This document shows positions 4,813-60,472 of a stretch of DNA of 64,000 bases, in pieces. The notes beneath the pieces were generated by a model, which saw only the letters and a list, made by a program, of their open reading frames with translations, did no database searches and was not told the DNA's origin. The position numbers were made by a program, and so were the translations under genes. Source of the stretch: Mya arenaria (lineage: Eukaryota). The number at the start of each line of letters is the position of its first letter. Position 1 is the first letter of the stretch. Location: contig NC_069133.1 in assembly GCF_026914265.1 (NCBI RefSeq), positions 48,673,355 to 48,737,354 on the forward strand. Reading direction: 5' to 3'.

Positions 4813-4892
4813 CATGAAAACCGACAGACCGACAGACAAGCTCACTCCTTTATACCCCCACAAACGAAGTGTGATATTAATGAGAAAGATAA

Positions 4893-5216: not shown

Positions 5217-6028
5217 GAACTTTATTGTATGCTTTTCGGTGCTTTATAATAATTTTGCACTGTTTCAAAAAGTGAAAAATATAAATATGATTTTTTCCGG
5301 GGTTTTGAAATTTTAACCCGCTTCATATGTCATATCTGTGCACACAGAACTAGGAACAAATTTAAGCAACATCATTTATGAAAAGACATGATGTTTGCTT
5401 TTCTGAAAACTACAATTAACTGTCATTTTAAAACCTTTTTAGACTTAATAAAAATTAACTGGTTTTTTTTCAGTGTAATATAACAATAAATTTCACAAGT
5501 AAACATCAAAACGAAATATTTTATTCATGGTTACAACACTTATAAAATATAGGTTTTGGTGCTCACTCTGTGAAGTATAATTGCCATCTTACACTGAAAA
5601 AACACTTTAAACCTCCATATGTTGTAGCAAGAATAGATTGTTTCATTTTCCGTAGGTATTCTGAACATGTTTGTTTCACACGATAGCAAACAAGAACCAA
5701 CTGCACCATGGAGTGAACGCTAATGCTAGTCTGTTGATATTTTTTTAATTGATAGGGTGTTGATATGAATGGTTTATTATGAATTATTACCAAGGGTAAT
5801 GTTTCTGCTTGACTGCAATTCTACCTGACTGCTCTGAAAACAATCCCACTAATGCTAATGACACTAAAGTTTTCATGTTACCTGGACTGTTTTCTTCGAA
5901 ATAAACTAGTTTAAAAAAAGGAAATCAATGGACTAGGATGCTTTAAAAAGCTCTGGATAATATTCACTATGCATCATATTAATTTTCAGCTTTATGATAA
6001 GCTAACTTGACAATACTTTAAAACTAAC

Positions 6029-22486: not shown

Positions 22487-22553
<67 letters not shown>
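22487..22553. repeat. (AT)n/(TA)n dinucleotide microsatellite of ~67 bp.
   Basis: Uninterrupted tatatata... run. Confidence 0.95.
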
Positions 22554-22557
<4 letters not shown>

Positions 22558-25789: not shown

Positions 25790-26220
25790 AACGATATCAA
25801 GTCTGATTTAAGACTTAATCCTGGGGTCATGGTTACGAACAGCCTCAATTCTGAGTTGTGACTCAACCCTGGGGCCATGCTTTGGAACAGTCTCAAGTAT
25901 AAATTCAGGCTAAATCCTTGGGCCATGGTTACGAACAGCCTCAATTCTGACTCAATCCTGGGGCCATGGTTACGAACAGCCTCAATTCTGAGTTGTGACT
26001 CAACCCTGGGGCCATGCTTTGGAACAGGCTCAAGTCTAAATTCAGACTCAATCCTGGGTTACCATGTTTACCAACAGTCTCAAGTCTGTGTCCAGTTGTA
26101 TTCCTGGAGCCATTGTTGCGAACATTTTCAAGTTTGAGTTCAGTCTTAATTCTGGAGTCATGCTTACGAACAGTCTCAAGTCTGAGTTCAGACTCAAGTG
26201 GGAAACTGCAAATTTTCATT
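25790..26220. repeat. Tandem repeat, ~57-60-bp unit x ~7 (tcaaNcctggggccatgNttacgaacagNctcaaNtctga).
   Basis: Direct repetition seen in the sequence. Overlapping ORFs appear on both strands, which is typical of stop-poor tandem repeats. Confidence 0.85.
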
Positions 26221-31945: not shown

Positions 31946-32351
31946 ATGGAAGGAATTTCATCCGGCGTTGCGATTACTTGGAGAAATCAGAGTACTGGTG
32001 GTGATAGTGAACATCTATTCCACAACACAACTGGCAACGGAAGTGAACCTCTATACCAATACTCAACTGGCAATGATAGTGAACATCTATACCAATCGTC
32101 AGACCAGCCGTACATTCCCATGTACCTGAATGTACTAGTGGCGGTGCTTAACGCTATCATATTCATCATTGGCGTTACGGGAAATATTCTGGTCATCACT
32201 GTGATCTTAAAACTGCGGGAAATGAGGACGCCGACAAATGTGTTTCTGCTAAACTTGAGTGTAGCAGACGTCTTGTTTCTGGTCGTGTGCCAACCTGCCG
32301 CTCTGCTCGAGTTCTTTGGAAAGGACAGGTGGTTTCTAGGGGAGGCCATGT
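31946..32351 (+). CDS. Class A (rhodopsin-like) GPCR, exon 1. It encodes the N-glycosylated N-terminus, TM1, TM2 and the start of TM3 up to GEAM-.
   Basis: ATG at 31946. N-x-S/T sites are present. TM1 is IFIIGVTGNILVITVIL and TM2 is NVFLLNLSVADVLFLVV. The conserved W (DRWFLGEAMC) is present. The donor consensus gtgagt sits at 32352. Confidence 0.8.
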
Positions 32352-33794
32352 GTGAGTTATGCATTTCTTTATCACTTTTGTGATTTGTGTTTTTTTATTT
32401 TTTAAAAAGAAATATTGGCAGCTAGCTAACCACTAATTTCGAGAGGAAGGACGTAGCGAATCATGACTATTATTTAGCACCGTAGATGAGCATTATTCGA
32501 TAAATTATCGCTGATGGCCTTCCACAGTGCAAATGTCGTTGAATGACCAAAACATACAATGCTTAAAAAAACTTTATTTTTCATTTAATTTTGAGGTAAC
32601 AAGCATAACACATTCACCTATACATATTTTTGAAACATTTTAATTTGGCCTTTCCCACCAATTTTTGCATTGTGGAAGGTCCTTGTCGACTCGCGGTCCT
32701 TTACAATTTTGTAATGCGACACTTATTTATATGTGCAATGCATCTGTAAAAATATCCTTTATTGTTGTGGGTCTTCAACAGACTAAATGATGCAATCAAC
32801 CTATTGCTAATCACTTCTTTCAACAGATTTAGATGTTGATAACCGTTTTTTCCCAACTCGACATGATCTATAAAATGAGAATGAAAGATACAATACACAT
32901 TCCAATAAAAGTATGCCGTATTCATCCGAGAACGTTATAGTTGATAACAAAAGAACGTGCAAATATATAAATGTACAATATATTTGTTGTTACTGATTTT
33001 ATTAGGCCACATCAATTTAATGTTCTGTTCTTCGGATTCTGTCAGATATAAATCGGAGCTAGCAGACAATTTTTAAAAATAAAATAAAAAACAAACCCGG
33101 AGTGGACAGAGGTGTAACCAAATTTTCATACTTAATTAATCATTTAGAATATTTATCCTGAATAGGTTCAACTTTATTCTTCCTCTTAAATGTAATTTTA
33201 AGCAAAACCCAGGAGTAATCATTACAAATAACTATTTCAATTGTTTTGGGAGTCGTCAAAGACATATAATGACATGTTTTGCTTTGTGTGATACATTTTC
33301 TGGGAAATAGACGCGGAACGTAGAACGAAACGTCAGTGTTATGTGGCCGAAACAATATCAAAGTAATCAGACCAACACTGATTAAAATAAATATGTACCA
33401 CCCCGTTGAATTTCCTGATGGATAAATTAATCTTAATGTTAAATGTTGGGGCCTTGTGACTCCATACACTTTTGGTATTAAGTTTATGTTTGCTTATGTG
33501 CAATCACGAGTACATTCCAAGGGCTCTAGTCATTGCAGTTGGTATTTTTACACTTTATTTCAACTGAAATTGGACGTGTAACAACCTATTTTTATGAAAT
33601 GATGTAAGGGCTAAAACGTTTGTCACATACATCTGCGATTAGCGTGTAGCGTAACTGTGTATTATTTCTGATTATCCATCAGTTATTTTTCGCATATGCT
33701 TACATCATATAAGTGATAATAGCAACCATATTTTAACTTTACAAACAGTTACGTAAACTTCACAATTTCCTTTTAAATGGTTCCCTCAATATTC

Positions 33795-36175: not shown

Positions 36176-37071
36176 GTAAACTCGTGCCGCTGCTGGAAAA
36201 CGGTACACTGCACGTGTCCATTCTGACGATGCTCGCGGTGACATTCGAACGCTACTTTGCCCTCTGCCATCCCCTTAAGCAGCATATGGTTTGCACAATC
36301 TCAAAGACAGTCAAGTGTCTTCTCCTCATATGGGCGGTTGCCGTGTTTTTGACAGTACCTTTTCCCGTAATGACTGTCCTTGAAGATGCTACTTTCTATG
36401 ACGGAACTCCTACTAAAGTGTGTAGAACCAAAATAAACTCCTCGTGGAAATATGGTTATACTATTTTCGTTGTAGTCGCCTTTTTTGCCATTCCATTGAT
36501 TATTCTAGTAAGTATTTATATCAAAATCATTCATCAGCTCATGTCAGATACATTGAATAAGCTGACACAAAATAAAAGATCAGCTTTACAGACAATCGCG
36601 AGACGACAAGTTGTGTATATGCTTATTCTAATTATGGTTCTCTTTTTTGTAACTTTATTCCCAATACGTGTTTTAACGCTGTGGTTAATATTCAGCCCGG
36701 CTGAAAATGTCTACACAATTGGATTAGAGGCATTTCTGAATTTAATTTCTTGGTCCAGAATCCTTATGTATGTCAACAGTGCGGGAAACCCGATCATTTA
36801 TTGTCTGACATCAACAAAATTTAAAATGGCATTTAAGCGCTTACTAAAACGTAATGATGGTTATCTTTATGTTAGCTACAATACAATGACTGCAAGATTC
36901 AATGTTCATCGGGCATATAAAGGTGATCCAGAGAGGGCCCGAACGATCACCAGAAAACCAATAGATATATCATCATCGAAATCCACCACGTCAGGATCTA
37001 AACCAGCTGGTGACGACCAACACCAAGATGTTGACAAACTGAATGGAAGTACCAGGCACAGTTTTGATTGA
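36176..37071 (+). CDS. Class A GPCR, exon 2 (TM3-TM7 plus C-tail). It carries ERY and NPxxY motifs and is neuropeptide-receptor-like, of the ghrelin/neuromedin-U/TRH receptor superfamily type.
   Basis: Acceptor attttcag| at 36174-36175. Phase 1 joins T+GT into TGT, the conserved TM3 Cys of ...EAMCKLVPLL.... Motifs present: TFERYFALCHPLK and NSAGNPIIYCL. Stop at about 37069-37071. Confidence 0.8.
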
Positions 37072-37952: not shown

Positions 37953-40249
37953 TATATCCAGACGACTGCTACATCATCAGTATATACGATAAATTCTTCC
38001 ATAGATACATCCCAGTAGGAGAAGAAACATTTCATATCAAAATTATTGCAAATCCTGTCAAGATAATAGTTATAATGGAACACTGAAAACTCTTGGACAA
38101 GCCCAGCAATATACATCTAGGCCACAAACCTGCTTAAAGGCACACTGATCAAGGGAAATAACGCCAAAATACAACACACATTTCACAAATGAAAAACAAA
38201 TCCGTTTGGCAAGTCTAAACCAATCCACTAAACACCTTTAGGAAGTATGCTTAACGTACAAGTATGTTAAAGGTATAGTATGTGTCCATGTTACTGCTAA
38301 GTAATACATGTGTTGACTGTAGGGTACAAGCGTACGTGATTCTTCTAAACCTATCAAAGGGGTCTCAGGGTGATTCGTTCTTCTTTTTCTTTTATGTCCG
38401 ACCCGAGATGTAATCGCCCAAACGACACGAACAGTGTCCAAGAACATTGTTTTGGGGATGAAATCCACGCTACCTAACATCCGAGGGGACAGAGAACTAC
38501 ACGAGAACGAAATGGTGGATGGTAAAAGAACGATGCGTGCATGATTTACAGTGAAAATATTTTTTGATATTGTAAACAATTCTACTTCCGGTTCCCGATA
38601 TAAGGGTTTTTTATGCCAGTTACGCGTTCCGAATCGACTAGATTCTATCCTGGGAATAAACGCACAAAGACGCCAAGTACATTTTTAAGTGAATTCTTAA
38701 ACTCTGCAAACACTCTACAAAATACTTTCTTATATAACTCGTGTACATGTATAACTCTATCACATCAATGAACACCGTTTATGTAAGATATTGTCATTCA
38801 ATGTCATGATTTATACTTTGTTATAGGATTTTGTTTCTTATTCTTATACCGATAACGTCGCCTTCGTTGGCCTACGATAGCAAATGTTCGGAATGGTTCT
38901 CAAAACTATTTCATTTGCGAAACAAGGCCAAACGTATTAACAGAGTTGTGTTCAATCCTTTATTTATACATACACGTAAAGCACATAATTTTATATAAAC
39001 AGCATTTGAAACAATATTCCTAGGATGATGCGACAATGTCCCAATTACCTAATTTATCTAACTTCAGCAATAGAATGTTCAACACGCGTCCGATATCGCC
39101 TGGTATACGTACTCGACTTCGCACTTTTGCTTCCTTGCAGCTGTGTTGAGTCTATGAGTGTTCACAGATTGGGTAGATTGCATCGCTAAGGAGACTGCGC
39201 TCTTTGGGAAAATGAAGCAATAAACCAACTATATTTTCATTTAATATAGGAGAACCTCTGGTGTTTCCGTTTGCGTTTCAACAGACAATAAATATTGGCA
39301 TGGACATTAACCCACACACTCTGTCACCAGTTCAAGATGATTTGTTAATATATAATTTATTGTCTTCTCAAGGTATAAACCCATTACTTTTACCTAGTAG
39401 TTGAAGGTATTTATCCCACAATCGAATATGATCGACATTATGTCCCATAACACTTGTACGTTGGTTTATCACGAGTAGGTTATAAACGACTGAGTTATTG
39501 TCTGCACGCAACCTCATCTGGGCGTCACCGGCGACAACAGAAATATCATGTGTCGAAATTTTGAACGACAAAAACAACTGATATGACCTAAATGTATTGC
39601 AGTACTTTGGCATATGTAACTATCAATCATCGACATCCAAATAGGATAGGGGTAAGCGAAAAATAGCTTATTTCAATATATCGTTTAACAATCGAAGGTA
39701 CGGAAATATTGGATCATATGTAAAGGGTTGTTCGAAAACACATTTTGCTTGTTTCGTTTATGAAACTCGTAACAATTATGCCGCATTTTGACGTTCTTAT
39801 GTAACTTGTATAAATGTCAGTCGTATGAAATTGATTGACTTGCATTTTCTTTGTGAAACATCCCATTGTTTTACAAATGACGATCTTGCCTATATGCGTT
39901 TGAAAATTAAATGGCAATCTTTCAAATTTTTATTGGCTAAGTTGATTGCATAGTTTTCATATTCGGAATATTAAAAAAATTGCTTGTCTTTAGAATAATG
40001 TTCTTTTGACTTTACAGTACATTTAACGCTGGTTGTTCATTTCAAACGATAAAAGTACTCTTTTTTTACAATTTTGCCGAATAATTCTAAATATAATAAT
40101 TATCATTTAACTCACAAAACTTTTTTGCATTAAAATATTTAACACTTTGAATCCTGGTTATTCTTTTTCACGCCTTCTTATCTACAAGGGGAAGTAAATT
40201 AATACATATTTAAAACCATGGTCCTGATTATAAGTTAGCACTCAACCTT

Positions 40250-41260
40250 TTTAAGAAAAGTATTCATCCCTCCATTTTGTAACAAAAATATTTGGAAAAG
40301 ATGTTTTTATTGAGTGGCGATGCGAAATCGTCTTCAAAGTTCGATCCTAGCTGATGTTGCACATGTCTCGCGGCATAACCCAGAAAATGTATAATAATAG
40401 AACAGTACGGCAAATTAAATAGGGTGTTTTAATGTTACATACACTGTTGTAAGAAGCAACATAGCGCTGCAATGAAACGCTTGCATCATTTATGTTCTAT
40501 TCTGATCAGTTTTAATAAGCATTGAACATCAGACATATAAATCTAGAATTTTGCGACATAACAGACATTTTTTAGATAAAACATCTGGAATTATAACAGT
40601 TACAGTTTACTGAAGCTATAGATGCCAATAAAATTAGTACAATTAATTTCATAAACGTCTTCTGCAGACATCTATTAAATATTATAAAGCCTCTAAAACA
40701 ATTAGTGGGAGTTATTGTAGCCCTCTGGTACCGCGCCCTTTACGCTAAGCCGTTCAATCGTAAAACAACCACGTCTGAGTGATGATACAGGTTTTATTAT
40801 TAGCAATCATTTATGTCTTAGTTGTCAATTTATTCTATATATTTATATCATTTGTTCGATTAAACGAGAGCAAAGCTAACTCTCAGATCTTAACCAGGCA
40901 TCAAGTCGGTCCGTAGACCTAACGATGAAACCCAATTACAATACCTCAGATTTTAACCACTTTGCAGAATATAACCCAGACTTAGATTGACTGACTGACT
41001 CAAAACTTTATTGATAACTTACTAACCAACTATCAAGGTCTAGATAAGTGTCTTTATACTTCCCAATTGATCCAAATTGCAGTTGACCATTCAAAAGTGT
41101 TTCTCGATAGTAAAACGACTTTATGTGATGCCTTTATCCTCACCTGAAAATAATCAAAGGATTTTACTGGTTATCACCACAAACTGGAGCTTGTCAACCA
41201 ATTGTTTTTATGGACGTAAATCTAGCTAGGTTAAACATTTTCAATCGTAAAGTGGTCATG
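40250..41260 (+). repeat. Interspersed repeat of ~1 kb. A second copy lies at 56140-57150 and a partial copy at 55060-55560.
   Basis: Collinear similarity, e.g. gatgcgagatcgtcttcaaagttcgatcctag..., ttaaccactttgcagaatataacccagact and gattttactggttatc(a/g)ccacaaa. Confidence 0.75.
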
Positions 41261-42790: not shown

Positions 42791-44983
42791 ACAGGGTTCG
42801 CCGCCCTCCGCCATTTTGTTTTCCTGTTGACAAAGAGTCTCGGTTATACATACTCAGGAATGAAAGTTTATTCTCCAGGGACGTAGAAAAAAGGCAAACA
42901 ACGATATATTTAAGAAATATTTTTTTACAATAGAATTTAAAGAAAATATTTTTTTTTTCCTTTATGTCTAAAAAAAGATAAGGGTCGGCGAGAAAAAAAT
43001 AGCGTCGGTCGGGTTACCGGAAACAGGTATTTTTTTTGGCCTCAGGTTCATTAACAATATCACTAAATGCGTCGTTTATATAAAAGTTCATAATGAACTA
43101 ATGAGTGCTAATATAATCCTTTCTTGATGTCCATCTCGTATCTGAGAGAATAGTGAGAGTCTGTCCTTTTGAAGCATACTGAAAATTGACATATTCGTTT
43201 TCCTCCTCACACTCTGATGAGTCGGCTAAAAGGTCCGCCACTGCACTTTTAAATGACTTGTGTCGTTTGCGAGGTTGTGAAAAAAGAAAGTTAGTTGTTG
43301 AAATTTGTTCATAAAAATGCGAATCGATGGCACCTGGGTGCATGATGTGATAACTACTAGATTTAATCAATGACTATTAACTTGTTTAATGTATTTAGCA
43401 TGCAGATAAAAGTCAGTAATCCGAGTCTGATCGCCACTTACTTGGCCACTCATTGGCGATGCACCATCAAACATTTTCCCTCGACAATCGTTAGGTCTAG
43501 GTACAATTGTTGTTGACTGTGGCGATGTAAACTTCGTAATCTTTGGTGTTCTTTTCAGATGTCAGGAAATAAATTCATCATATGTGCTTATCCATTCCTT
43601 AAAGAACTTATAATTGCCGTTCTCGCGGTTTAGGTCTTTTAACAATCTCCCTCTGAAAGGAATTCCACGTGATGAATGTTTTATAATAGTTTTGATTATA
43701 TCCATAAGAACATGTCTGTGTTCGCTTATTTTAAAACGCGCGTCAACTGAGTGTTAAACAAGCGTTCTTTACACTTAGCAACTCCAGATATTTGTATTGA
43801 TAAGTTTATACATGCCGCCTATATTTTAGCATATCTGAAATGGAAAATGCAAAAATTAATTAATTAAATTAGTATATATTGTTGTCTAGGATATTACATA
43901 TCTAGAACATTTGAAATTTATGCGGACTCGTTTGAACAATACGGAGTCCTATTCTATGAATAGAGCGTGTCGTCAGTACTCGAGCAAAAAGGCCTTGCTG
44001 TATTGTTTGATACAATAAGTCCCGGCAGTGCTAAATTTTCTGTATCTACGGCATAACTCATAATTAAATGTGTCATTGTAGTCGTTCCTCGAATTCAGAA
44101 GTCGATTTTATTAGTTTTCATATCATTAGCTATTCTTATTTATTTTATGTGTTTTTTTTTCGCTCTCCAAATTGGCGGTGTGCGTCAGTGTGGCTACGGC
44201 GCTGTCATGTCGAGGAACCGTCTACTGATATTGAAAACCAACAACAACTGTAAAACAAATTGACGGAACGATATGACTGCTTCACTAATTGTATGGCATA
44301 GTCGTTAAGAACATACTATTCTACAAAAAGGGGAAACGATGCTATTTTTGAAAATATATTGATTAATCAACTATTAAAGGCTGGTATAAAGAATAGCATG
44401 TAATGATGAATTTGTACAAGAAATAGTTCTTTAGTAAGTATTAATCATTAAGATAACACACGATATGATTGCACCTGCAGTAAATGAACACAGTGAAACA
44501 TCCTGAAAGTCTATTTTTAAGGTCATACATAATTGAGTTTGAACACTGCTTGTCCTAGTGGTTTGTATACATGTTAATTTCTAGAGGTTGCGTACAGAAC
44601 TTTCTATCCTTGCGATAAGTAAAGGTAGGGTGTGAGCTCTTGAGATTCAAATTAAAGTCATATCATTGGAGTCTATGTAAACGTATCATAGATTTATAAC
44701 AAGAGGCACAAAGAACGACGCCAAAGTTCAGTTACTTCTCACTTCACCCATTGTCAAGTGAAGTAAGGAGAAATAATTCCAAATTTGTTGACTTATCATT
44801 AATTGTACAATATTTTTTTCACTTTCAAATCGAGCGGTAGTCATTGTTACAAATCAATTCTAGCTAATGAAAAGAAGCGATGATTTTTGTTTTATATATT
44901 TGAATCATAAGATAGCCACGACACGTTACAACACAATAAAAGCTACATGGACAAGAACTTTTGTCATAAATTTAGATATAAAC

Positions 44984-45640
44984 CCTGTTGTTTTTTCTCA
45001 TTTATTTTGAATATAGTTATTGTAATAACTGAAAAGCAATCTGAAACACATTATAAATCTGATATAGATTTAAACGTTGTTGTTTTTTCTCATTTATTTT
45101 GAATATAGTTATTGTAATAACTGAAAAACAATCTCAAACACAATATAAATCTGATATAGATAAAAACGTTGTTGTTTTTTCTCATTTATTTTGAATATAG
45201 TTATTGTAATAACTGAAAAACGATCTCAAACACATTATAAATCTGATATAGATATAAACGTTGTTGTTTTTTCTCATTTATTTTGAATATAGTTATTGTA
45301 ATAACTGAAAAACAATCTCAAACACATTATAAATCTGATATAAATAAAAACGTTGTTGTTTTTTCTCATTTATTTTGAATATAGTTATTGTAATAACTGA
45401 AAAACAATCTCAAACACATTATAATTCTGATATAGATGTAAACGTTGTTGTTTTTTCTCATTTATTTTGAATATAGTTATTGTAATAACTGAAAAGCAAT
45501 CTCAAACACATTATAAATCTGATATAGATATAAACGTTGTTGTTTTTTTCTCATTTATTTTGAATATAGTTATTGTAATAACAGAAAAACAATCTCAAAC
45601 ACATTATAAATCTGATATAGATATAAACGCTGTTCAGAGG
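44984..45640. repeat. Tandem repeat, 92-bp unit x ~7.
   Basis: gttgttgttttttctcatttattttgaatatagttattgtaataactgaaaaacaatctcaaacacattataaatctgatatagatataaac is repeated with point differences. Confidence 0.9.
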
Positions 45641-46136
45641 CACAAGGTAAGGGCCTTAACGACACTGTTACAGAAGAACAACCGTACAAGCAGACGACAA
45701 ACCCATTCAAATAGCATTATAAATAGATGATGGGATTACCGCCTTGAAACGGGCCGTGAAACACACTGGAGCACATGTGTATCACTGGGGATTCTAACTA
45801 GTTTACATGCGGATAACCACACACATGTTTCCACATTTATCATCGGAGTCAGCATTAACTTGAAAGCAATAAAAAAAAATAATAACATATAAACTTTTCA
45901 GTTACTACAAGTACTTAACGACTGAATGATTCAAATCGGAGAAACAATGCTTATTTTATAAAAGGTAACATAAAGGCATTCAAAGACATCTTTCTGACAT
46001 AGATTGTCCTAACAAACTCAAAATTAAAACATTACTGTAATGGTGAATACATCATCGTACAAACCAGGAAGAAAAACATATATAAATATATAATTAAACA
46101 AAAATAACATAATATCTAATGTTCTTTGATATATCA

Positions 46137-49100
46137 AGACGAAATGAACATACGGATAAGGCGGCATCGGGTGACAGAAACGGTCTTAAGGATAAGGAAA
46201 CGGTATTTGTCCCAGAATCGACAAATGTATAAAGTGTATGACCTAATGACATGAATGACCTACACACAGAATTTGCATTTTGGTCCATTTCATATAGTTT
46301 TGTGGTATTCGTCCGAAAGAGTGCTCTTTAAAATTTAATTTACAGAACACACACTTGCATTCAAAAGAAAATGTACTGTAAAATATAGTATATATACTGT
46401 AAGTATTTTTAAAGGGGCCAAAAATCTTGAAACGTTCCGAATGAAATTGTCTTTTGACTTGGTAATTTTGTAGCCAAAAAGTCAATTGAAGTTACTTTTT
46501 TATATAATATACTTCTTCCTTGAGACGATATAATCAATAAGCAGCAATACACTAGTCATTTCGTAGTCTCAAATAGTCTGAAAAAACCCCAATTCATTAT
46601 TCAATTTTGCCGAAAAAACTTTTTTCATTTGACGGCAAATATGGATATCGAACAACTTCTGATAAAATATCTCCACGTAAAATGTGCAAACTTCTTAACA
46701 CATCAAAACTTGTAGCACGGAATATACGTTTAACATTTTCAACAGATTGTTTCTACAGTTTAAAATTATCAAATACAAAAACGTTTTCATTGTTGGCCTT
46801 CCCCACCGAAGTGTACTGCTGCAGGTCATCTGATCACCATGCATTTTGCACAACAGTAATGAGGCATATTGTCATTTATGATTCAGCTCACAATTACTCT
46901 TTAATGTGAATTCATTCAACACTATGGAATAACATTTAAGTAGCACTCTAGTTCATGCAACATCATCCGAACATTAATTGCATATTTGTTATAAACAATA
47001 ATTAGCGAAGAAGAAGCTGTGATAATAGTAGCATAAATAAATTGCAAGAAGAAGATATCTTTTAAACCTGATATATATGACAAAAATCGGTTAGCAAACA
47101 CATACGTGAATACCGTTGCAAACATTCTATGGAATACGAATCGAATACCATAGATTTCTATGAAAATGCTTACAATCATTTTTTTCCAAATAAATCGCCA
47201 CAAAATCTATGCCATCTTTTATATTTAACACATACCTGAAAGGCAAAAAACATGTAATTAGTCAACGTTCAATTTTATATCTTAATCTTAAGTAAATGAT
47301 CTAAGTTTCTAAAGTAATTGATCGGACAAGACAACGTTTTGGTAATTTCTATCCTAAAGGGCGATAATTCAAGAGTGACTTAAGCAATATAGCTGAGATA
47401 CAATGCCAATTCACATTCTAACCAAATTGAATGATGTTAAGTTACTTATCGGAAAGCATACTTGATCCCGAATACCAACCCGTCCGTCGCAGATGAAACT
47501 ATGATACGTCCCGATATGTGAACGGACGTATTAAAAATCTACGCTCAATATACAGTGTATGTCATTCAAACTTAAATATCATTCTATTTTGCTAATGGTT
47601 GAAGGGCAAAACACACCGATTCTAATATGAGTAGTCAGTGTAACATTCCTTTTTTTCTTTTAGTACGCAATAGATTAAATCATGACATCTCAAAACATTT
47701 GCTACTTTCCATTTTCATATTTTTTGGAACTGAATGGTTTGTGATGTAAAAAAAGTGCTGGACATGCTGAATATATATTTGTGTTTATATGTTTACCCCC
47801 ATTGTTTGTTGTAACCCTAAAGAGGATGTGGCCACGTTTCTTAATACATATTGGCTACTACCAACCAATTTGTTTTTCTTATAAAATGTTACATTTTTCT
47901 AACGCTGTTTAACATTTAAAACTGTAGTAAAATTTGTCCAATATACAGTACTGAGGTGTGAAATTCTCGGAATCAGTGTTATTTCGCCTGTAGATGATTA
48001 ATTTACTATTGAATACATATGAGATCAATGTTGACGTCTTTAAATGAAAATGAATATAAAATGAAACGTAAATGGAATAGATATATAAATAGTTAATCAA
48101 ATTCATCTCCCTTAATTAAAGTGATTTTCGCAATTCTTCTTTCATGTCTTAAAACAAAACAAAATATATAGAGGATATTTGTTTATTTCAGTGTAAGATC
48201 GTATTTTATTTCACGAGTGTCATAAAAAAATATATTTTCACGAGTGGCGAAGCCACGAGTGAAAATGTAGTTTTTTTTATGATCACGAGTGAAATTAAAT
48301 ACGATCTTACACTGAAATAAACAAATTTTCTGTTTCTTTTATGCTTATTTTCGGAGTTTTATTTGTTTTTTATTTATTTCTGAATTACCCCCTTTTTTGA
48401 AAAGGGTGGGCTTTACGCCGCTACCCGTGGGGCGCCCCTCATGCATAATTATAGCTGTCAACTTTTCGACTTTCGGTTTGCTGAGAAATAGTTCTCTGCT
48501 ATTCATTCTTATGGCTTAATATTCGCTCGTTTTTTATTGCAAAGCTTTATGAACAGTAAACAATGACGTATTATTAGTGCACATATGTTCCAAAAATAAT
48601 GAAAACACATTTTATTTTAAGATGGACATGAAAACATAATCAAATTACTACGCTGCTATTTAAAGAATGAAAATTTGGAAGGTCAAATGTGTTAGCAAAA
48701 CAAATGTGGATACTCATTGGATTTTAACCATTTTTCTTAGTTTAAGACTGCATGTACGCGTGTTTTTATAGTAAGTTAATATTCAGTCATCTTACTGTCA
48801 GAGACCAGTCTGTTTCGCTTTAAAATGTTTGTTTTCCAGATAAAGAGTAAATGCCACGCTAGTTTGTTGACACATTTTGTTGTGTGGGTGGGGTAAAAAT
48901 ATCGAATCTATCTGTAAATTGTTGTGTGAATTCTCCAGGAAGCTCAATTTACGTACTCCAATGGTTAACAGTTCAAAATACATTTGAACGATGATATAAA
49001 ATTGTATTTATGTTCGAACAGTTGTTTTTGTCTGTAATTTGTTTGGTATGAAAGCAAATGTTCGAACATTCAGCTTCAAAGATCAGTAAAATGTTTGATA

Positions 49101-52100
49101 AACGGGATAACCGGTAATAAACGGTAAGTTGTTAATTTCCAATTATATATTTATCTAAATTTATAAAACATTTCTTTTATATATTTTTTAACATTTTTTG
49201 ACATAATTTATTGAAGTCCAGTAGGCAAGTACATGTAACAACAAAGGAATTTAAAGTAGTTCTGAAAGTTGATATTTTCACTCCTTATTTTGCAGTGAAA
49301 ATACCAAATTGATATTTTCACTGTAGTTATTTCACTGGTTAAAACCCATATTTCATCGAAAAGCATGAAAGAAATAATTATCGTTTCTTGTTTCTTGACG
49401 TTTATTTAGTAGTTATTGTAATTTAAGGCAGGTTTATGTATAACAAATTCAAGTGTTTTTGTTTACAATTAAACATTGTTCATCGAAATGCACTCTGTGA
49501 CCTATGAACTACTTTCATTCACCTTAATTCAAATTCTAGAAGGAAAATTTTCATTTACTCAGTTTTTTATTCTTAAACAATTACAAATATGCTGTCTTTT
49601 ACCCTTTTAAAAACGTTTTTGAAATTAGAGGCAGATATGGATCAACTGATGCTTATATAGCGAGTACTCTTAGTTGTTACTTTCTAGCTAAGGCAACACA
49701 TTTATATTCTTGGTTCAGATTTATTTTATTAACGTATGAAAATATATTTTCATCGTGCCGGGAATATTAGGGATCATTTGATAGAAACTAATTATTGTTT
49801 AATCAACGTTTAATCAACAGTGCTTGATCTTCAATTTGAAATATTATCTACTTTACATTATACCTCTTAATTCTAATGTTCAATGCTTTTTTTTTTGGTT
49901 TGCTCTGACTATTTTAATGATCTGCAATATTTTCATTATGAAAGGCACGGAGCTTCGAAAAACATTTCGGCATCTCCTGTTATTAGGCTTTTCAATTAGA
50001 TCTAAGACTGTACGTATTTTATCAATCGCTTGAAAATATAATTTAGTCTGCGACAGTGACTGTGTTTTATACCTATAAAAGATACACAGTGCATTACCGT
50101 TTAAACGACGTACCAACGCCGGAATGAAGAAATACCGGCTTATGTCGTCTTTATACTGCCATGGCCAGCATAATGGTCACTTGGCTGGATTGCACGGTTC
50201 AAACTTGTTGGACTGTAATATTGTTTTTATATTTATATCATCACAGTAGGGTAATGACCAATTAAGATTTTAAATACTATCTGAGAATATCCGTGTTCGT
50301 TGAACAAAGAATGGTTCATGCCTTCAAACTTTCCATTTTTACAAAGCCGAATAACTGCTTCTTTTATTCAGACGTCTGCACTACAAATCGTTAACCCTAC
50401 ATCAAGTCAATATATATGATTATACATATATCTTGCACACAGAGGTTACCAAATATTTGTTGAAACATTTTTAAAATGCATATGTTCCAATTATTCCTGA
50501 ATACTTTATCCTTAAATATAAATGGTTATTACTGACGGTATATTTACAAATTGTAATTTTCAAGACGAAATGAACATACGGATAAGGCGGCATCGGGTGA
50601 CAGAAACGGTCTTAAGGATAAGGAAACGGTATTTGTCCCAGAATCGACAAATGTATAAAGTGTATGACCTAATGACATGAATGACCTACACACAGAATTT
50701 GCATTTTGGTCCATTTCATATAGTTTTGTGGTATTCGTCCGAAAGAGTGCTCTTTAAAATTTAATTTACAGAACACACACTTGCATTCAAAAGAAAATGT
50801 ACTGTAAAATATAGTATATATACTGTAAGTATTTTTAAAGGGGCCAAAAATCTTGAAACGTTCCGAATGAAATTGTCTTTTGACTTGGTAATTTTGTAGC
50901 CAAAAAGTCAATTGAAGTTACTTTTTTATATAATATACTTCTTCCTTGAGACGATATAATCAATAAGCAGCAATACACTAGTCATTTCGTAGTCTCAAAT
51001 AGTCTGAAAAAACCCCAATTCATTATTCAATTTTGCCGAAAAAACTTTTTTCATTTGACGGCAAATATGGATATCGAACAACTTCTGATAAAATATCTCC
51101 ACGTAAAATGTGCAAACTTCTTAACACATCAAAACTTGTAGCACGGAATATACGTTTAACATTTTCAACAGATTGTTTCTACAGTTTAAAATTATCAAAT
51201 ACAAAAACGTTTTCATTGTTGGCCTTCCCCACCGAAGTGTACTGCTGCAGGTCATCTGATCACCATGCATTTTGCACAACAGTAATGAGGCATATTGTCA
51301 TTTATGATTCAGCTCACAATTACTCTTTAATGTGAATTCATTCAACACTATGGAATAACATTTAAGTAGCACTCTAGTTCATGCAACATCATCCGAACAT
51401 TAATTGCATATTTGTTATAAACAATAATTAGCGAAGAAGAAGCTGTGATAATAGTAGCATAAATACATTGCAAGAAGAAGATATCTTTTAAACCTGATAT
51501 ATATGACAAAAATCGGTTAGCAAACACATACGTGAATACCGTTGCAAACATTCTATGGAATACGAATCGAATACCATAGATTTCTATGAAAATGCTTACA
51601 ATCATTTTTTTCCAAATAAATCGCCACAAAATCTATGCCATCTTTTATATTTAACACATACCTGAAAGGCAAAAAACATGTAATTAGTCAACGTTCAATT
51701 TTATATCTTAATCTTAAGTAAATGATCTAAGTTTCTAAAGTAATTGATCGGACAAGACAACGTTTTGGTAATTTCTATCCTAAAGGGCGATAATTCAAGA
51801 GTGACTTAAGCAATATAGCTGAGATACAATGCCAATTCACATTCTAACCAAATTGAATGATGTTAAGTTACTTATCGGAAAGCATACTTGATCCCGAATA
51901 CCAACCCGTCCGTCGCAGATGAAACTATGATACGTCCCGATATGTGAACGGACGTATTAAAAATCTACGCTCAATATACAGTGTATGTCATTCAAACTTA
52001 AATATCATTCTATTTTGCTAATGGTTGAAGGGCAAAACACACCGATTCTAATATGAGTAGTCAGTGTAACATTCCTTTTTTTCTTTTAGTACGCAATAGA

Positions 52101-54988
52101 TTAAATCATGACATCTCAAAACATTTGCTACTTTCCATTTTCATATTTTTTGGAACTGAATGGTTTGTGATGTAAAAAAAGTGCTGGACATGCTGAATAT
52201 ATATTTGTGTTTATATGTTTACCCCCATTGTTTGTTGTAACCCTAAAGAGGATGTGGCCACGTTTCTTAATACATATTGGCTACTACCAACCAATTTGTT
52301 TTTCTTATAAAATGTTACATTTTTCTAACGCTGTTTAACATTTAAAACTGTAGTAAAATTTGTCCAATATACAGTACTGAGGTGTGAAATTCTCGGAATC
52401 AGTGTTATTTCGCCTGTAGATGATTAATTTACTATTGAATACATATGAGATCAATGTTGACGTCTTTAAATGAAAATGAATATAAAATGAAACGTAAATG
52501 GAATAGATATATAAATAGTTAATCAAATTCATCTCCCTTAATTAAAGTGATTTTCGCAATTCTTCTTTCATGTCTTAAAACAAAACAAAATATATAGAGG
52601 ATATTTGTTTATTTCAGTGTAAGATCGTATTTTATTTCACGAGTGTCATAAAAAAATATATTTTCACGAGTGGCGAAGCCACGAGTGAAAATGTAGTTTT
52701 TTTTATGATCACGAGTGAAATTAAATACGATCTTACACTGAAATAAACAATTTTTCTGTTTCTTTAATGCTTATTTTCGGAGTTTTATTTGTTTTTTATT
52801 TATTTCTGAATTACCCCCTTTTTTGAAAAGGGTGGGCTTTACGCCGCTACCCGTGGGGCGCCCCTCATGCATAATTATAGCTGTCAACTTTTCGACTTTC
52901 GGTTTGCTGAGAAATAGTTCTCTGCTATTCATTCTTATGGCTTAATATTCGCTCGTTTTTTATTGCAAAGCTTTATGAACAGTAAACAATGACGTATTAT
53001 TAGTGCACATATGTTCCAAAAATAATGAAAACACATTTTATTTTAAGATGGACATGAAAACATAATCAAATTACTACGCTGCTATTTAAAGAATGAAAAT
53101 TTGGAAGGTCAAATGTGTTAGCAAAACAAATGTGGATACTCATTGGATTTTAACCATTTTTCTTAGTTTAAGACTGCATGTACGCGTGTTTTTATAGTAA
53201 GTTAATATTCAGTCATCTTACTGTCAGAGACCAGTCTGTTTCGCTTTAAAATGTTTGTTTTCCAGATAAAGAGTAAATGCCACGCTAGTTTGTTGACACA
53301 TTTTGTTGTGTGGGTGGGGTAAAAATATCGAATCTATCTGTAAATTGTTGTGTGAATTCTCCAGGAAGCTCAATTTACGTACTCCAATGGTTAACAGTTC
53401 AAAATACATTTGAACGATGATATAAAATTGTATTTATGTTCGAACAGTTGTTTTTGTCTGTAATTTGTTTGGTATGAAAGCAAATGTTCGAACATTCAGC
53501 TTCAAAGATCAGTAAAATGTTTGATAAACGGGATAACCGGTAATAAACGGTAAGTTGTTAATTTCCAATTATATATTTATCTAAATTTATAAAACATTTC
53601 TTTTATATATTTTTTAACATTTTTTGACATAATTTATTGAAGTCCAGTAGGCAAGTACATGTAACAACAAAGGAATTTAAAGTAGTTCTGAAAGTTGATA
53701 TTTTCACTCCTTATTTTGCAGTGAAAATACCAAATTGATATTTTCACTGTAGTTATTTCACTGGTTAAAACCCATATTTCATCGAAAAGCATGAAAGAAA
53801 TAATTATCGTTTCTTGTTTCTTGACGTTTATTTAGTAGTTATTGTAATTTAAGGCAGGTTTATGTATAACAAATTCAAGTGTTTTTGTTTACAATTAAAC
53901 ATTGTTCATCGAAATGCACTCTGTGACCTATGAACTACTTTCATTCACCTTAATTCAAATTCTAGAAGGAAAATTTTCATTTACTCAGTTTTTTATTCTT
54001 AAACAATTACAAATATGCTGTCTTTTACCCTTTTAAAAACGTTTTTGAAATTAGAGGCAGATATGGATCAACTGATGCTTATATAGCGAGTACTCTTAGT
54101 TGTTACTTTCTAGCTAAGGCAACACATTTATATTCTTGGTTCAGATTTATTTTATTAACGTATGAAAATATATTTTCATCGTGCCGGGAATATTAGGGAT
54201 CATTTGATAGAAACTAATTATTGTTTAATCAACGTTTAATCAACAGTGCTTGATCTTCAATTTGAAATATTATCTACTTTACATTATACCTCTTAATTCT
54301 AATGTTCAATGCTTTTTTTTTTGGTTTGCTCTGACTATTTTAATGATCTGCAATATTTTCATTATGAAAGGCACGGAGCTTCGAAAAACATTTCGGCATC
54401 TCCTGTTATTAGGCTTTTCAATTAGATCTAAGACTGTACGTATTTTATCAATCGCTTGAAAATATAATTTAGTCTGCGACAGTGACTGTGTTTTATACCT
54501 ATAAAAGATACACAGTGCATTACCGTTTAAACGACGTACCAACGCCGGAATGAAGAAATACCGGCTTATGTCGTCTTTATACTGCCATGGCCAGCATAAT
54601 GGTCACTTGGCTGGATTGCACGGTTCAAACTTGTTGGACTGTAATATTGTTTTTATATTTATATCATCACAGTAGGGTAATGACCAATTAAGATTTTAAA
54701 TACTATCTGAGAATATCCTTGTTCGTTGAACAAAGAATGGTTCATGCCTTCAAACTTTCCATTTTTACAAAGCCGAATAACTGCTTCTTTTATTCAGACG
54801 TCTGCACTACAAATCGTTAACCCTACATCAAGTCAATATATATGATTATACATATATCTTGCACACAGAGGTTACCAAATATTTGTTGAAACATTTTTAA
54901 AATGCATATGTTCCAATTATTCCTGAATACTTTATCCTTAAATATAAATGGTTATTACTGACGGTATATTTACAAATTGTAATTTGTA
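46137..54988. repeat. Direct tandem duplication of a ~4426-bp segment: unit 1 at 46137-50562 and unit 2 at 50563-54988, ~99.9% identical.
   Basis: Every six-frame ORF in unit 1 reappears at +4426 bp with the same translation, e.g. 46243-46485 equals 50669-50911. I saw only a handful of single-base differences, at about 47024/51450, 48324/52748 and 50298/54722. Confidence 0.9.
48175..48323. mobile_element. Foldback/MITE-like element of ~150 bp with 38-bp terminal inverted repeats. It is present again at 52599-52747 in the duplicate unit.
   Basis: atttgtttatttcagtgtaagatcgtattttatttcac ... gtgaaattaaatacgatcttacactgaaataaacaaat. Inside it tcacgagtg occurs three times. Confidence 0.65.
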
Positions 54989-55059
54989 AAAAGAAAGTAA
55001 TCATAAAAAGCTATGTGCATGACAATCAATTAGCACTCGACATATTTAAGATATGTCTA

Positions 55060-55560
55060 TATCCCTCCAGTTAAATTTTGTAACAATACATTTGGAAAGA
55101 AAACATGTACTTTGAGTGAGGATGCGAGATCGTCTTTAAAGTTCGATCCTAGCTTATCTTTCACAGGTCTCCCGGCAAAACCAAGAAAACATATAATAGA
55201 ACAGGAGGGCAAATTAAAGAGGGTGTCTTAATGCTGCATACTCTGTTGTAATAAAACTTTGAAACGTATCTGTTCTGTTCTGTAATGTTTATATAAGCAC
55301 GAAACTGCATTCATATCAATCTGGGGAAAGGGACATTATTACGATTAATACGTCTGAAATTCTTACAAAAATAATTTGCCGAAGCTATAGTTCCCAATTA
55401 AATAAATTATATTTATTTCGTTAACGTCTTCTACAGACATCAATTTAATAGTATAAAGCCATTCAAACAATTATGAGAGTTTTTGTAGCACTCTGGCACC
55501 AATCCGCGTCCTATACACTAAGCCTTTCAATCGTAAAGTCAAAACAGCCACATCCGATGA
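55060..55560 (+). repeat. Partial copy of the 40250/56140 repeat family, fused at 55560-55700 to a segment similar to 50040-50200 and 54470-54620.
   Basis: gaggatgcgagatcgtctttaaagttcgatcctagc... is followed by gtctgtcacactgactgtgttttatacctgaaaatgatacacaatgtattaccgttt..., matching tagtctgcgacagtgactgtgttttatacctataaaagatacacagtgcattaccgttt. Confidence 0.6.
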
Positions 55561-56139
55561 TACAAGACAATTTAGTCTGTCACACTGACTGTGTTTTATA
55601 CCTGAAAATGATACACAATGTATTACCGTTTGAAGGACGTACCAGCACCGGAATGAAGAAATACCGGCTTATATCGCCACTCTACAGCCGTGACCGGATT
55701 GAACGGTTCAAACTAGTTGCACTGTAATATTTCTATGACCATTAAATTTAAATTTCAAATTCTAACCCAGTAAAGCTTTGTTCGTTGTAAAATAAATCAT
55801 TAACGCCTTCAAACTTTCGAGTTTTATAAAGCCGTCTTTTAAAACTGCTCCTTTTAATCAGACGTTTGCACTACAAACTGTTTACCCTACGTCAATATAT
55901 TTCATATGTCATACACACAGAAGTAATCAAATAATAATTTATCTTCAAAATTGATAAGGTCCAATAATTCCTGAATGTTTTTATCTTAAGTACTGATGGT
56001 TATGATTAACGATATATATTTTCAAAAATATCGGCGTTTTCTACTTAGCTAAAAGAAAGTATATATATTATACCATGTGCTTGACTACTAAGTATTAGTT
56101 TATCACTCGACATTTTAAGTTAAGTCGATATCCTCCAGT

Positions 56140-57150
56140 CAAAGTTTGTTACAATGCAATTGGTAAAAGTCATGTTCATAGAAGAAGAAGATAGTTTATT
56201 CATGGAAATATTGAGTGGGGATGCGAGATCGTCTTCAAAGTTTGATCCTAGGTTATGTTTCACAGGTTTCGGAAAACGTATACTAAAACATTATGGCAAA
56301 TTAAAGAGGGTGTCTAATGCAGCATACTCTGCTGTAAGAAGCAAAACGCTGCAATAAAAAGTTTGCAGCATTTCTTGTTCTGCTCTGTTATGTTTATATA
56401 AGCATGAAATATCATTAATATAAATCTGGAAATTTGCGACAAAAGGGACATTTTATGATTAAACCGTCTGAAATTCTTGCCAAAACAATTTACAAAAGCT
56501 ATTACTGAGTAGTATTTATTGTTTAAACGTCATCTACAAACATCCTTTAAATAGCATAAAGCCGCTAAAACAATAATGAGAGTTCTTGTAGCACTCTGGC
56601 ACCAACCCGCGCTCCATGCCAAATAATTTATATGAAAAACTACAGAATGAAGTTCAATCGTATATTTATAAAGTCAAAACAGCGACGTCCGGTGCTACAA
56701 GTTTTATTGTTAGCAATTATTTATTTTGTCAGTTGTCAATTAATTGTTCGATTAAATGAGAGCAAATCTTACTCTAAGATCTTAACCAGACCTTAACTCG
56801 GTATGTAGACCTTAATATTAAACCCAATTACAGTATCGCAGATTTTAACCACTTTGCAGAATATAACCCAGACTGAGATTGACCGACTGACTAAAAACTG
56901 TCTTATAAATTTGATAAAATGTGACCAAATACCAAGCTCCAAATAAGTTGTTTATACTTCATAGTTGACCCTTATTGCAGTTGACCATTCAGAAGTGTTT
57001 CCTAACGCCCCTCAATAGTTCAACGACATCATGTGATACCTTTAACCTAACGTGTCAATGGATTTTACTGGTTATCGCCACAAAAAGGAGCTAGTCAATC
57101 AATAATTTCAGTGACGTAAATTTTAGCCTGGCCAAATACTTTCGACAGCT
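56140..57150 (+). repeat. Third copy of the ~1-kb interspersed repeat family.
   Basis: Collinear with 40250-41260. Confidence 0.7.
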
Positions 57151-57989: not shown

Positions 57990-60472
57990 GACCGATCGAC
58001 TTCGACAATTCATCACGACATTGAATATTTCCTATATAAGATCGAATGTCGAGCTAGAATTCCGTCCAGCTCGACATTGCAGCTCAACATTGAAGATTTG
58101 CTATATAATATCGAATGTCGAGCTAGAATTCCGTCCAGCTCGACATTGCAGCTCAACATTGAAGATTTGCTATATAATATCGAATGTCGAGCTAGAATTC
58201 TGTCCAGCTCGACATTCCGGCACGACATTGAATATTTCCTATATAATATCGAATGTCGAGCTAGAATTCCGTCCAGCTCGACATTGAAGATTTGCCATAT
58301 AATATCGAATTCTAGCTAGAATTCCGTCAACTCGACAATTAATCACGACATTGAATATTTCCTATATAATATCGAATCTCGTGCTAGAATTCCGTCCAGC
58401 TCGATATTGCAGCTCGACATTGAAGATTTGCTATAAAATATCGAATGTCGAGCTAGAATTTTGTCCAGCTCGACATTGCAGCACGACATTGAAGATTTGC
58501 TATATAATATCGAATGTCGAGCTAGAATTTCGTCCAGCTCGACATTGCAGCTCGACATTGAAGATTTGCTATATGATATCGAATGTCGAGCTAGAATTCC
58601 GTCCAGCTCGACATTGTAGCTCGGCATTGAAGTTTTGCTATATTATAATGAATGTCGAGCTAGAATTCTGTCCAGCTCGACATTGCAGCTCGACATTGAA
58701 GATTTGCTATATAATATCGAATGTCGAGCTAGAATTTCGTCCAGCTCGACATTGCAGCTCGACATTGAAGATTTGCTATATAATATCGAATGTCGAGCTA
58801 GAATTTTGTCCAGCTCGACATTGCAGCTCGACATTGAAGATTTGCTATATGATATCGAATGTCGAGCTAGAATTCCGTCCAGCTCGACATTGTAGCTCGG
58901 CATTGAAGTTTTGCTATATTATAATGAATGTCGAGCTAGAATTCTGTCCAGCTCGACGTTCCAGGTCGATATTAAATATCTGCCATATAATATCGATTTT
59001 CGAGCTAGAATTCTGTCCAGGTCGACGTTCCAGGTCGACATTGAAGATTTACTATATCATATCGAATGTCGAGCTAGAATTCCGTCCAGGTCGACAATTC
59101 ATCACGACATTGAATATTTCCTATATAATATCGAATGTCGAGCTAGAATTCCGTCCAGCTCGACATTGCAGCTCGACATTGAATATTTGCTATATAATAT
59201 CGAATGTCGAGCTAGAATTCTGTCCAGCTCGACATTGCAGGTCGACATTGAAGATTTGCTATATAATATCGAATGTCGAGCTAGAATTCCGTCCAGCTCG
59301 ACATTGAAGATTTGCCATATAATATCGAAAATGTAGAGCTAGAATTCCGTCAACTCGACAATTAATCACGACATTGAATATTTCCTATATAATATCGAAT
59401 CTCTTGCTAGAATTCCACCCAGCTCGACATTGCAGCTTGACATTGAAGATTTGCTATAAAATATCATATGTCGAGCTAGAATTTTGTCCAGCTCGACATT
59501 GCAGCTCGACATTGAAGATTTGCTTTATAATATCGAATGTCGAGCTAGAATTCCGTCCAGCTCGACATTGCAGCTCGACATTGAAGATTTGCTATATAAT
59601 ATCGAAGGCCGAGTTAGAATTTTGTCCAGCTCGACATTTCAGCTCGACATTGAAGATTTGCTTTATAATATCGAATTTCGAGCTAGAATTCCGTCCAGCT
59701 CGACAATTCATCACGACATTGAATATTTCCTATATAATATCGAATGTCGAGCTAGAATTCCGTCCAGCTCGACATTGCAGCTCGACATTGAAGATTTGCT
59801 ATATAATATCGAATGTCTATATATATTTTTGTCCAGCTCGACATTGCCGCTCGATATTGAAGATTTGCTATATAATATTTATTTAATAATATTTTATTTA
59901 TAAACATTATTACAATTGTCAAAATATTTACATACATGTATATAGAAAAGTTTGAAATAAATGTTATCAAAGTTGTATGCAAAAGGGTCGAGCCACAAGT
60001 TATCAACAACATTAGTTACGGCCCTCCCCTTGCTATATAATATCGAATGTGGAGCTAGAATTCCGTCCAGCTCGACATTGCAGCCCGACATTGAAGATTT
60101 GCCATATAATATTGAATGTAGAGCTAGAATTCCGTCAACTCGACAATTAATCACGACATTGAATATTTCCTATATAATATCGAATCTCGAGCTAGAATTC
60201 CGTCCAGCTCGACATTGCAGCTCGACATTGAAGATTTGCTATAAAATATCGAATGTCGAGCTAGAATTTTGTCCAGCTCGACATTGCAGCTCGACATTGA
60301 AGATTTGCTATATAATATCGAAGGCCGAGCTAGAACTTCGTCCAGCTCGACATTACAGCTCGACATTGAAGATTTGCTATATGATATCGAATGTCGAGCT
60401 AGAATTCCGTCCAGCTCGACATTGCAGCTCGACATTGAAGATTTCCGATATAATATCGAATGTCGATTGTCG
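57990..60472. repeat. Satellite DNA array with a 69-bp monomer (~33 copies, several variant subtypes). A ~165-bp AT-rich insertion interrupts it at 59870-60035.
   Basis: Monomer atcgaatgtcgagctagaattccgtccagctcgacattgcagctcgacattgaagatttgctatataat. It contains an EcoRI site (GAATTC) and the 9-bp dyad tgtcgagct/agctcgaca. The 69 = 3x23 periodicity produces long ORFs in several frames on both strands. Confidence 0.95.

Follow-up and report, generated by a model that had tools for sequence, protein, structure and literature searches.

The 64-kb window, i.e. the whole stretch of soft-shell clam (Mya arenaria) nuclear DNA that was analysed, carries a 4426-bp unit twice, on the same strand and head to tail, and the question raised by this locus is whether both copies are present in the animal or whether the second was introduced during assembly. 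An initial annotation had posed the choice as one between a recent duplication and an assembly artefact, which was the correct framing. The most likely reading, with a probability of roughly 0.5, is that the duplication is real: in the sequenced Mya arenaria haplotype, a non-coding intergenic segment of 4,426 bp would have been duplicated in tandem, in the germline, only very recently; a product of the assembly is a serious contender at rather less than even odds. The kind of artefact originally proposed, a collapse, was the wrong one, as any artefact at this locus would consist of a false duplication, that is an unmerged overlap.

Structure of the duplication

Ungapped comparison at an offset of 4426, together with BLAST, found 4 mismatches in 4426 positions between 46134-50559 and 50560-54985, i.e. 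99.910% identity with zero gaps or indels (Table 1). The earlier description of two ~4.4-kb head-to-tail copies, ~99.9% identical and separated by a few substitutions, was thereby confirmed, although the span given for them, 46137-54988, lay 3 bp too far to the right (46134-54985 is the true one); the junction quoted with it, ...tacaaattgtaattt|tcaagacgaaatg, was correct and is placed at 50559|50560. A 4.4-kb match at 99.9% cannot have originated by chance, and the 64-kb window contains no other long repeat of >97% identity besides this pair. The left edge of copy 1 is sharp, with mismatches dense from 46133 leftwards, and at both outer edges identity drops abruptly to the background level. 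Since it is at background immediately beyond both edges, there are exactly 2.000 copies and 0 bp of microhomology at the joint, which reads ...CAAATTGTAATTT|TCAAGACGAAATG as unit end and unit start. The assembled locus has the direct copies of constant period, the single novel joint and the breakpoints without extended homology that are expected of a non-homologous tandem duplication. It begins ~9 kb downstream of an OX2R/QRFP-like GPCR gene.

Table 1. Positions of the duplicated unit, its joint, variant sites and neighbouring repeats in the window
Feature	Position	Strand	Remarks
Copy 1 of 4426-bp unit	46134..50559	.	99.91% identical to copy 2, ungapped
Copy 2 of 4426-bp unit	50560..54985	.	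right-flank junction keeps ancestral order
Novel joint 50559|50560 (...caaattgtaattt|tcaagacgaaatg)	50545..50574	.	blunt, 0 bp microhomology, no inserted bases
Variant site	47040	.	A in copy 1, C at 51466 in copy 2
Variant site	50293	.	G in copy 1, T at 54719 in copy 2
MITE-like foldback, copy 1	48177..48326	.	150-nt hairpin, 67 paired positions; DNA fold -60.6 kcal/mol, z = -15
MITE-like foldback, copy 2	52603..52752	.	-57.3 kcal/mol; two fewer base pairs at stem base
Partial array unit at 3' end of copy 1	50040..50559	.	~70% identity to 55569-56017
Old tandem array, period ~1100 bp	54466..57121	.	68-73% identity; first ~520 bp in copy 2, remainder = right flank
92-bp minisatellite	44878..45634	.	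500 bp upstream of left breakpoint; context

The ancestral order of the sequence is revealed by an older array with a period of 1.1 kb, in which 55569-56611 aligns with 54466-55508. Because this array stays in register across 54985/54986, the outer right edge represents the ancestral order. At 50559|50560 the register is broken, and the partial array unit that ends copy 1 is followed by the unit start and not by the next array unit. A solo relative is found at 40212-41221, and examination of the array for coding potential found no conserved open frame. A 69-bp satellite is also present at the locus.

The four differences between copy 1 and copy 2 (47040 A/C, 48325 A/T, 48340 T/A and 50293 G/T) are all transversions, and two of them (48325 and 48340), which lie 15 bp apart, are shifts of A/T homopolymer boundaries. 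Homopolymer runs of 6-10 nt are of equal length between the copies in 18 cases out of 18. By calculation, 5-20% of random haplotype pairs would differ at no more than four sites across 4.4 kb, so the low divergence is compatible with an allelic origin. Templated quasi-palindrome mutation was considered for the two clustered differences, of which 48325 is at the base of the foldback stem and 48340 is 14 nt past it; copy 1 has two more pairs at the stem base, yet 48340 is outside the stem.

Contents of the unit

The unit has a G+C content of 31%, in keeping with its earlier description as AT-rich, and no detectable gene. Its longest stop-to-stop frame is 110 aa, its 30 frames of at least 45 aa, when concatenated, had no match among 5.8 billion proteins and its ten longest frames had none in Pfam. 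A search for tRNAs found none in the unit, and Rfam gave no match to it at gathering score. That the unit holds no convincing gene, as first suggested, is borne out by all of these ORF, protein, Pfam, Rfam and tRNA searches. Independent copies of the locus were sought by exact look-ups of the ORFs across the left edge and across the joint, as well as by metagenome scans with a 25-mer of the unit end and a 30-mer of the unit start, and no match was found.

The foldback noted inside the unit proved real on DNA folding and is present in both copies. The 150-nt hairpin is short and non-coding with terminal inverted repeats, and a related foldback at 5464-5604 has the same termini (TTTTCAGTGTAAGAT...ATCTTACACTGAAAA in both), a combination by which the element was classed as MITE-like. 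Plant miRNA-precursor models, the sole Rfam matches by E-value, fell on this hairpin and were rejected as generic hairpin matches far below gathering scores. The initial annotation was right that a foldback and AT-rich sequence are present but wrong that there is nothing else, as the last ~520 bp of the unit belong to the older 1.1-kb-period array.

Origin of the second copy

If the duplication is real, the ancestral order would have been left flank, X (46134-50559) and then the 1.1-kb array, and the start of X would have become attached to its own end in a single non-homologous event. Two breaks on sister chromatids could have been end-joined, or replication could have switched template or restarted before a final end-joining step; either route could have yielded two successive copies of X between the flanks, meeting bluntly at 50559|50560. 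The four point substitutions may have arisen afterwards, or may have outlasted gene conversion between the copies. The two-copy structure, its blunt joint, the absence of flanking homology and of genes and the ancestral register at the right were observed directly; that both copies are present in the animal, and by what mechanism and how recently the second arose, we infer. With no hint of function in the unit, the duplication is probably a neutral structural polymorphism.

The main competing explanation, which we consider possible at somewhat under even odds, is that the animal has a single X and that pieces overlapping by 4.4 kb were joined end to end without being merged. These could have been neighbouring FALCON contigs or, at a FALCON-Phase block boundary, a haplotig and the collapsed primary sequence, with any gap closed by PBJelly, and the four differences would then be heterozygous sites or errors of consensus or polishing. 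A blunt joint and exactly 2.000 copies are what end-to-end concatenation of overlapping contigs is expected to give, and count against a real duplication; many real tandem-duplication junctions bear 1-5 bp of microhomology or small insertions. The 4.4-kb unit is also shorter than a typical long read, and the computed 5-20% chance of so few allelic differences leaves room for two haplotypes. The all-transversion set with its two homopolymer-boundary shifts is another point on this side, being somewhat more like consensus or polishing noise, or one complex event, than four independent germline substitutions. purge_haplotigs discards whole contigs and is not known to trim overlapping ends. The published assembly, of clam MELC-2E11, was built with FALCON-Unzip, purge_haplotigs, Hi-C scaffolding, FALCON-Phase pseudohaplotype output, PBJelly gap filling and 10x/freebayes polishing (Hart et al. 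2023, PMC10663159), and unmerged overlaps could plausibly survive purge_haplotigs and the block swapping by FALCON-Phase and gap filling by PBJelly that came after it. In assemblies based on FALCON-Unzip, false duplications account for 0.3-2.3%, a share that increases with heterozygosity. Most lie on the same scaffold, some having been joined by faulty gap filling, and they tend to occur where homozygous sequence borders heterozygous sequence (Ko et al. 2022, PMC9516828). The window has no N gap, which speaks against such a join, but as gaps in this assembly were filled with PBJelly a closed gap may still lie between the copies.

Several observations favour a real duplication over this artefact. 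The exact two copies, the zero indel differences and the equal length of all 18 long homopolymers argue against two independently built noisy consensus sequences, indels being the dominant error type in PacBio continuous-long-read consensus. PacBio continuous long reads generally span a structure of 8.9 kb, and an assembler would normally collapse alleles that are 99.9% alike. The divergence of 0.09% is ~10x below the variant density of the species (~10.7 million non-reference SNVs in 1.22 Gb; PMC10663159) and hence too similar for the usual haplotype artefact, haplotype-type false duplications arising where haplotypes diverge (PMC9516828). The locus has a history of duplication, as seen in the 1.1-kb array, the 92-bp minisatellite and the 69-bp satellite, and this too counts for a real event. 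Normalised DELLY counts in published source data (PMC10663159) for two healthy non-reference clams are consistent with 1868 and 1929 calls of tandem duplications, or with whole multiples of those numbers, and the minimal counts correspond to roughly one tandem duplication per 640 kb; kilobase tandem duplications thus appear common in Mya arenaria. With only 539 contigs making up the 1.22 Gb of the final assembly, contig joins are sparse against the reconstructed number of such calls.

Neither of the other two explanations that were weighed has much to recommend it. Unequal crossing-over, i.e. non-allelic homologous recombination between direct repeats flanking the segment, could draw on the right breakpoint being inside the 1.1-kb-period array and on the minisatellite 500 bp from the left breakpoint. 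For this mechanism the left flank has to be similar to the end of the unit, and the right flank to its start; local alignment of 400-bp breakpoint flanks gave scores of 12 and 11, where shuffled sequence averaged 12.9 and 12.0, BLAST with 9-nt words found no match in either comparison and identity is lost abruptly, not gradually, at both edges. With no homology shared by the breakpoints this origin is effectively refuted, and it was rejected as very improbable. We attach an equally slight probability to the unit being a mobile element present as a head-to-tail dimer, such as a non-autonomous Helitron-like rolling-circle element or some other transposon. Rolling-circle elements can form tandem copies and the unit begins with TC directly after a flanking A, which is the Helitron 5' convention and is easily met by chance; this is the sole hallmark that matches, and the dimer was likewise rejected. 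At its 3' end the unit reads ...GTAATTT with a G next to it, where a Helitron would have CTRR and then a T; terminal inverted repeats, long terminal repeats, a target-site duplication and a transposase, Rep or helicase frame are all absent from the unit, of which there is no further copy within the 64-kb window. Moreover, as the 3' end is a piece of the local array, whose register carries on into the flank, the unit is local genomic sequence and not an inserted element.

Whichever its origin, the feature is an ordinary one and carries little biological weight, because the unit has no gene and kilobase tandem duplications are apparently common in the species. Its practical use is to mark a place in the Mya arenaria reference that calls for caution. 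A false duplication would be a local assembly error, halving mapping quality and distorting depth and variant calls over 8.9 kb, and a real one would provide a convenient structural polymorphism, testable by PCR across its unique joint.

Comparison with known systems

Germline tandem copy number variants formed by non-homologous end joining or template switching resemble the clam locus in their head-to-tail kilobase copies, single novel joint, near-identity, lack of flanking homology and intergenic repeat-rich surroundings. The putative clam duplication differs in that its joint is fully blunt. Non-allelic homologous recombination has the same outcome, a tandem duplicate, but needs flanking direct repeats, which are absent here. 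Heterotype and homotype false duplications of long-read assemblies (Ko et al. 2022, PMC9516828) likewise consist of nearly identical neighbours on a single scaffold and arise in a heterozygous species after FALCON-Unzip and then gap filling, whereas the clam copies are without an N gap or indel errors and have a divergence far below that typical of haplotypes.

The somatic tandem duplications of Mya arenaria transmissible neoplasia (Hart et al. 2023, PMC10663159) are of the same rearrangement class in the same species. They are found in a cancer lineage, are most often about 11 kb in size and were identified from split reads, whereas the clam unit is 4.4 kb and comes from a healthy-clam reference. 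By analogy, a real duplication segregating in Mya arenaria might be a germline example of the stalled-fork restart and end joining behind the ~11-kb tandem-duplicator pattern of the cancer lineage, a speculative and rather unlikely connection. Under such a stalled-fork origin in the germline, forks might be blocked by the long perfect foldback at the centre of the unit and by the tandem arrays on its flanks.

Structure of the duplication

A unit of 4426 bp is present as two head-to-tail copies, which differ by four mismatches and no indels in an ungapped self-comparison at an offset of 4426 and share 99.910% identity over 4426 bp by BLAST. The period of 4426 bp was also recovered in a repeat search of the window, where BLAST found no other long repeats above 97% identity. 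Dense mismatches begin directly left of 46134 and directly right of 50559 and 54985 in the ungapped comparison, and since identity is lost directly at the edges there are exactly two complete copies, meeting at a blunt joint at 50559|50560 (...caaattgtaattt|tcaagacgaaatg). The initial annotation had noted the duplication at 46137-54988; both the offset comparison and BLAST confirmed it, and the junction that it quoted is correct, but its coordinates lie 3 bp too far right. Divergence between the copies is 0.09% (95% interval 0.025-0.23%).

Features of the duplication and its surroundings (window positions)
Feature	Position	Strand	Remarks
Unit, copy 1	46134-50559
Unit, copy 2	50560-54985
Difference between copies	47040		A in copy 1, C in copy 2
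Difference between copies	48325		A in copy 1, T in copy 2
Difference between copies	48340		T in copy 1, A in copy 2
Difference between copies	50293		G in copy 1, T in copy 2
Foldback	48177-48326 (copy 1), 52603-52752 (copy 2)		67 paired positions
Older tandem array	54466 to ~57121		period ~1100 bp, 68-73% identity
Partial unit of older array	50040-50559 = 54466-54985		last ~520 bp of the 4426-bp unit
Solo relative of older array	40212-41221		14 kb upstream
Rhodopsin-family GPCR, two exons	31946-32359 + 36178-37068	plus	matches NCBI 'OX2R-like protein [Mya arenaria]'
LINE-type retrotransposon	15692-19133	minus	endonuclease and reverse-transcriptase ORFs
92-bp minisatellite	500 bp upstream of left breakpoint
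69-bp satellite array	58002-60466		~2.4 kb, higher-order periods 138 and 207 bp
145-bp satellite, two adjacent arrays	3604-4813		~3.9 and 4.6 copies, 93-94% matches; higher-order periods 284 and 462 bp
Degenerate 48-bp minisatellite	25797-26197
Perfect (TA)33 microsatellite	22489-22554

Contents of the unit and its surroundings

The unit has 31% G+C and its longest stop-to-stop frame is 110 aa. All 30 of its frames of at least 45 aa, searched as one concatenation against 5.8 billion proteins, gave no match at E <= 0.001, with no gene call from another assembly overlapping the unit. Pfam had no match for the ten longest frames, a tRNA search of the unit found none and no Rfam family reached the gathering score; the lack of a gene noted at the outset was thus upheld by every gene test. 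Matches to plant miRNA-precursor models at relaxed thresholds were rejected as generic hairpins far below the cut-offs. The foldback that had also been noted was borne out, with a DNA fold energy of -60.6 kcal/mol (z = -15), and as a diverged relative at 5464-5604 has the same termini it is a MITE-like element. Just downstream lies a short G+C-rich island (48390-48450 and 52816-52876; ...gggtgggctttacgccgctacccgtggggcgcccctcatgc...) in AT-rich surroundings, for which Rfam gave no match.

The window as a whole contains no N, has ~34% G+C, is rich in satellites and poor in long ORFs. The GPCR gene lies ~9 kb upstream of the start of the duplication, and its exons differ from the NCBI protein at a 7-residue stretch and one exon 1 boundary position. 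Its match identifies the window as nuclear DNA of the soft-shell clam, almost certainly part of the published chromosome-scale reference. The genomic sequence carries the residues GYTIFVV in frame and the deposited OX2R-like gene model lacks them, pointing to a spurious mini-intron in the annotation. The LINE, with ORFs of 599 aa (endonuclease domain) and 549 aa (reverse-transcriptase domain) overlapping by 8 nt, may be recent or nearly intact. The 69-bp satellite is open in several reading frames, the source of spurious ORFs as long as 318 aa.

Origin of the joint

Alignment of the older ~1100-bp array stays in register past the end of copy 2 (54466-55508 with 55569-56611), so copy 2 and the right flank keep the ancestral arrangement, leaving 50559|50560 as the sole novel joint. 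Units of this array have a 5' half common to all and a 3' half of two types. One type is shared by the partial unit at 54466-54985 and the second unit, the other by the third unit and the solo copy; the array showed no conserved open frame. Recombination between flanking repeats, which requires homology of the left flank to the unit end and of the unit start to the right flank, was rejected: BLAST found none, and the 400-bp flanks gave local-alignment scores of 12 and 11, where shuffled sequence averaged 12.9 and 12.0. A transposon dimer was likewise rejected, there being no terminal repeats, target-site duplication, element protein or further copy in the window, and the unit end being a fragment of the local array that runs on into the flank; nor is the 3' end Helitron-like. 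A real duplication would instead require a single non-homologous join of unit end to unit start, which could arise by end joining of sister-chromatid breaks or by replication restart or template switching.

A real or a false duplication

The initial annotation had offered either a recent duplication or an assembly artefact, and this choice was judged sound. A real tandem duplication is given a probability of about 0.5, a false duplication in an animal with one unit is a serious possibility at somewhat under even odds, and all other readings are improbable even jointly. For the reference, PacBio reads were assembled with FALCON-Unzip and purge_haplotigs; Hi-C scaffolding with FALCON-Phase pseudohaplotypes, gap filling by PBJelly and polishing with 10x/freebayes completed the assembly, which comprises 539 contigs and 1.22 Gb (PMC10663159). 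Of FALCON-Unzip-based vertebrate assemblies, 0.3-2.3% consists of false duplications, which increase with heterozygosity and lie mostly on the same scaffold, usually with a gap between them and sometimes joined via incorrect gap filling (PMC9516828). Such an origin would suit the perfectly blunt joint, the presence of exactly two copies and a duplicated length shorter than a typical long read. The pipeline, too, would favour it, since purge_haplotigs is not known to trim contig-end overlaps and gaps were closed afterwards. An artefact would also suit the differences themselves, all four of which are transversions, with those at 48325 and 48340 lying 15 bp apart and each moving an A/T homopolymer boundary.

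Against an artefact, there is no gap between the copies and no indel difference, even over 18 homopolymer runs of 6-10 nt. The copy divergence also lies well under the ~0.9% variant density implied by 10.7 million non-reference SNVs (PMC10663159), although under a simple coalescent two alleles would show four or fewer differences across 4.4 kb 5-20% of the time. The visible history of tandem duplication at the locus counts for a real event. Tandem duplications look common in Mya arenaria: 1868 and 1929 calls, or integer multiples of these, fit two healthy non-reference clams, numbers that are a reconstruction from normalised DELLY counts in the source data of PMC10663159 and are not stated there. 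Exact look-ups gave no match for ORFs that cross the left edge and the joint, and neither the unit end nor the unit start turned up in metagenome scans.

Age and significance

If real, the duplication would be ~10^5 generations old, given four differences across 4426 bp and 1-5 x 10^-9 mutations per site per generation, a rate that is assumed and not measured in Mya arenaria; this age is a minimum if gene conversion acted between the copies. This is young against the standing diversity of the species, and a real duplication is therefore probably still polymorphic. It implies no function, and under either reading it is an ordinary kind of feature.
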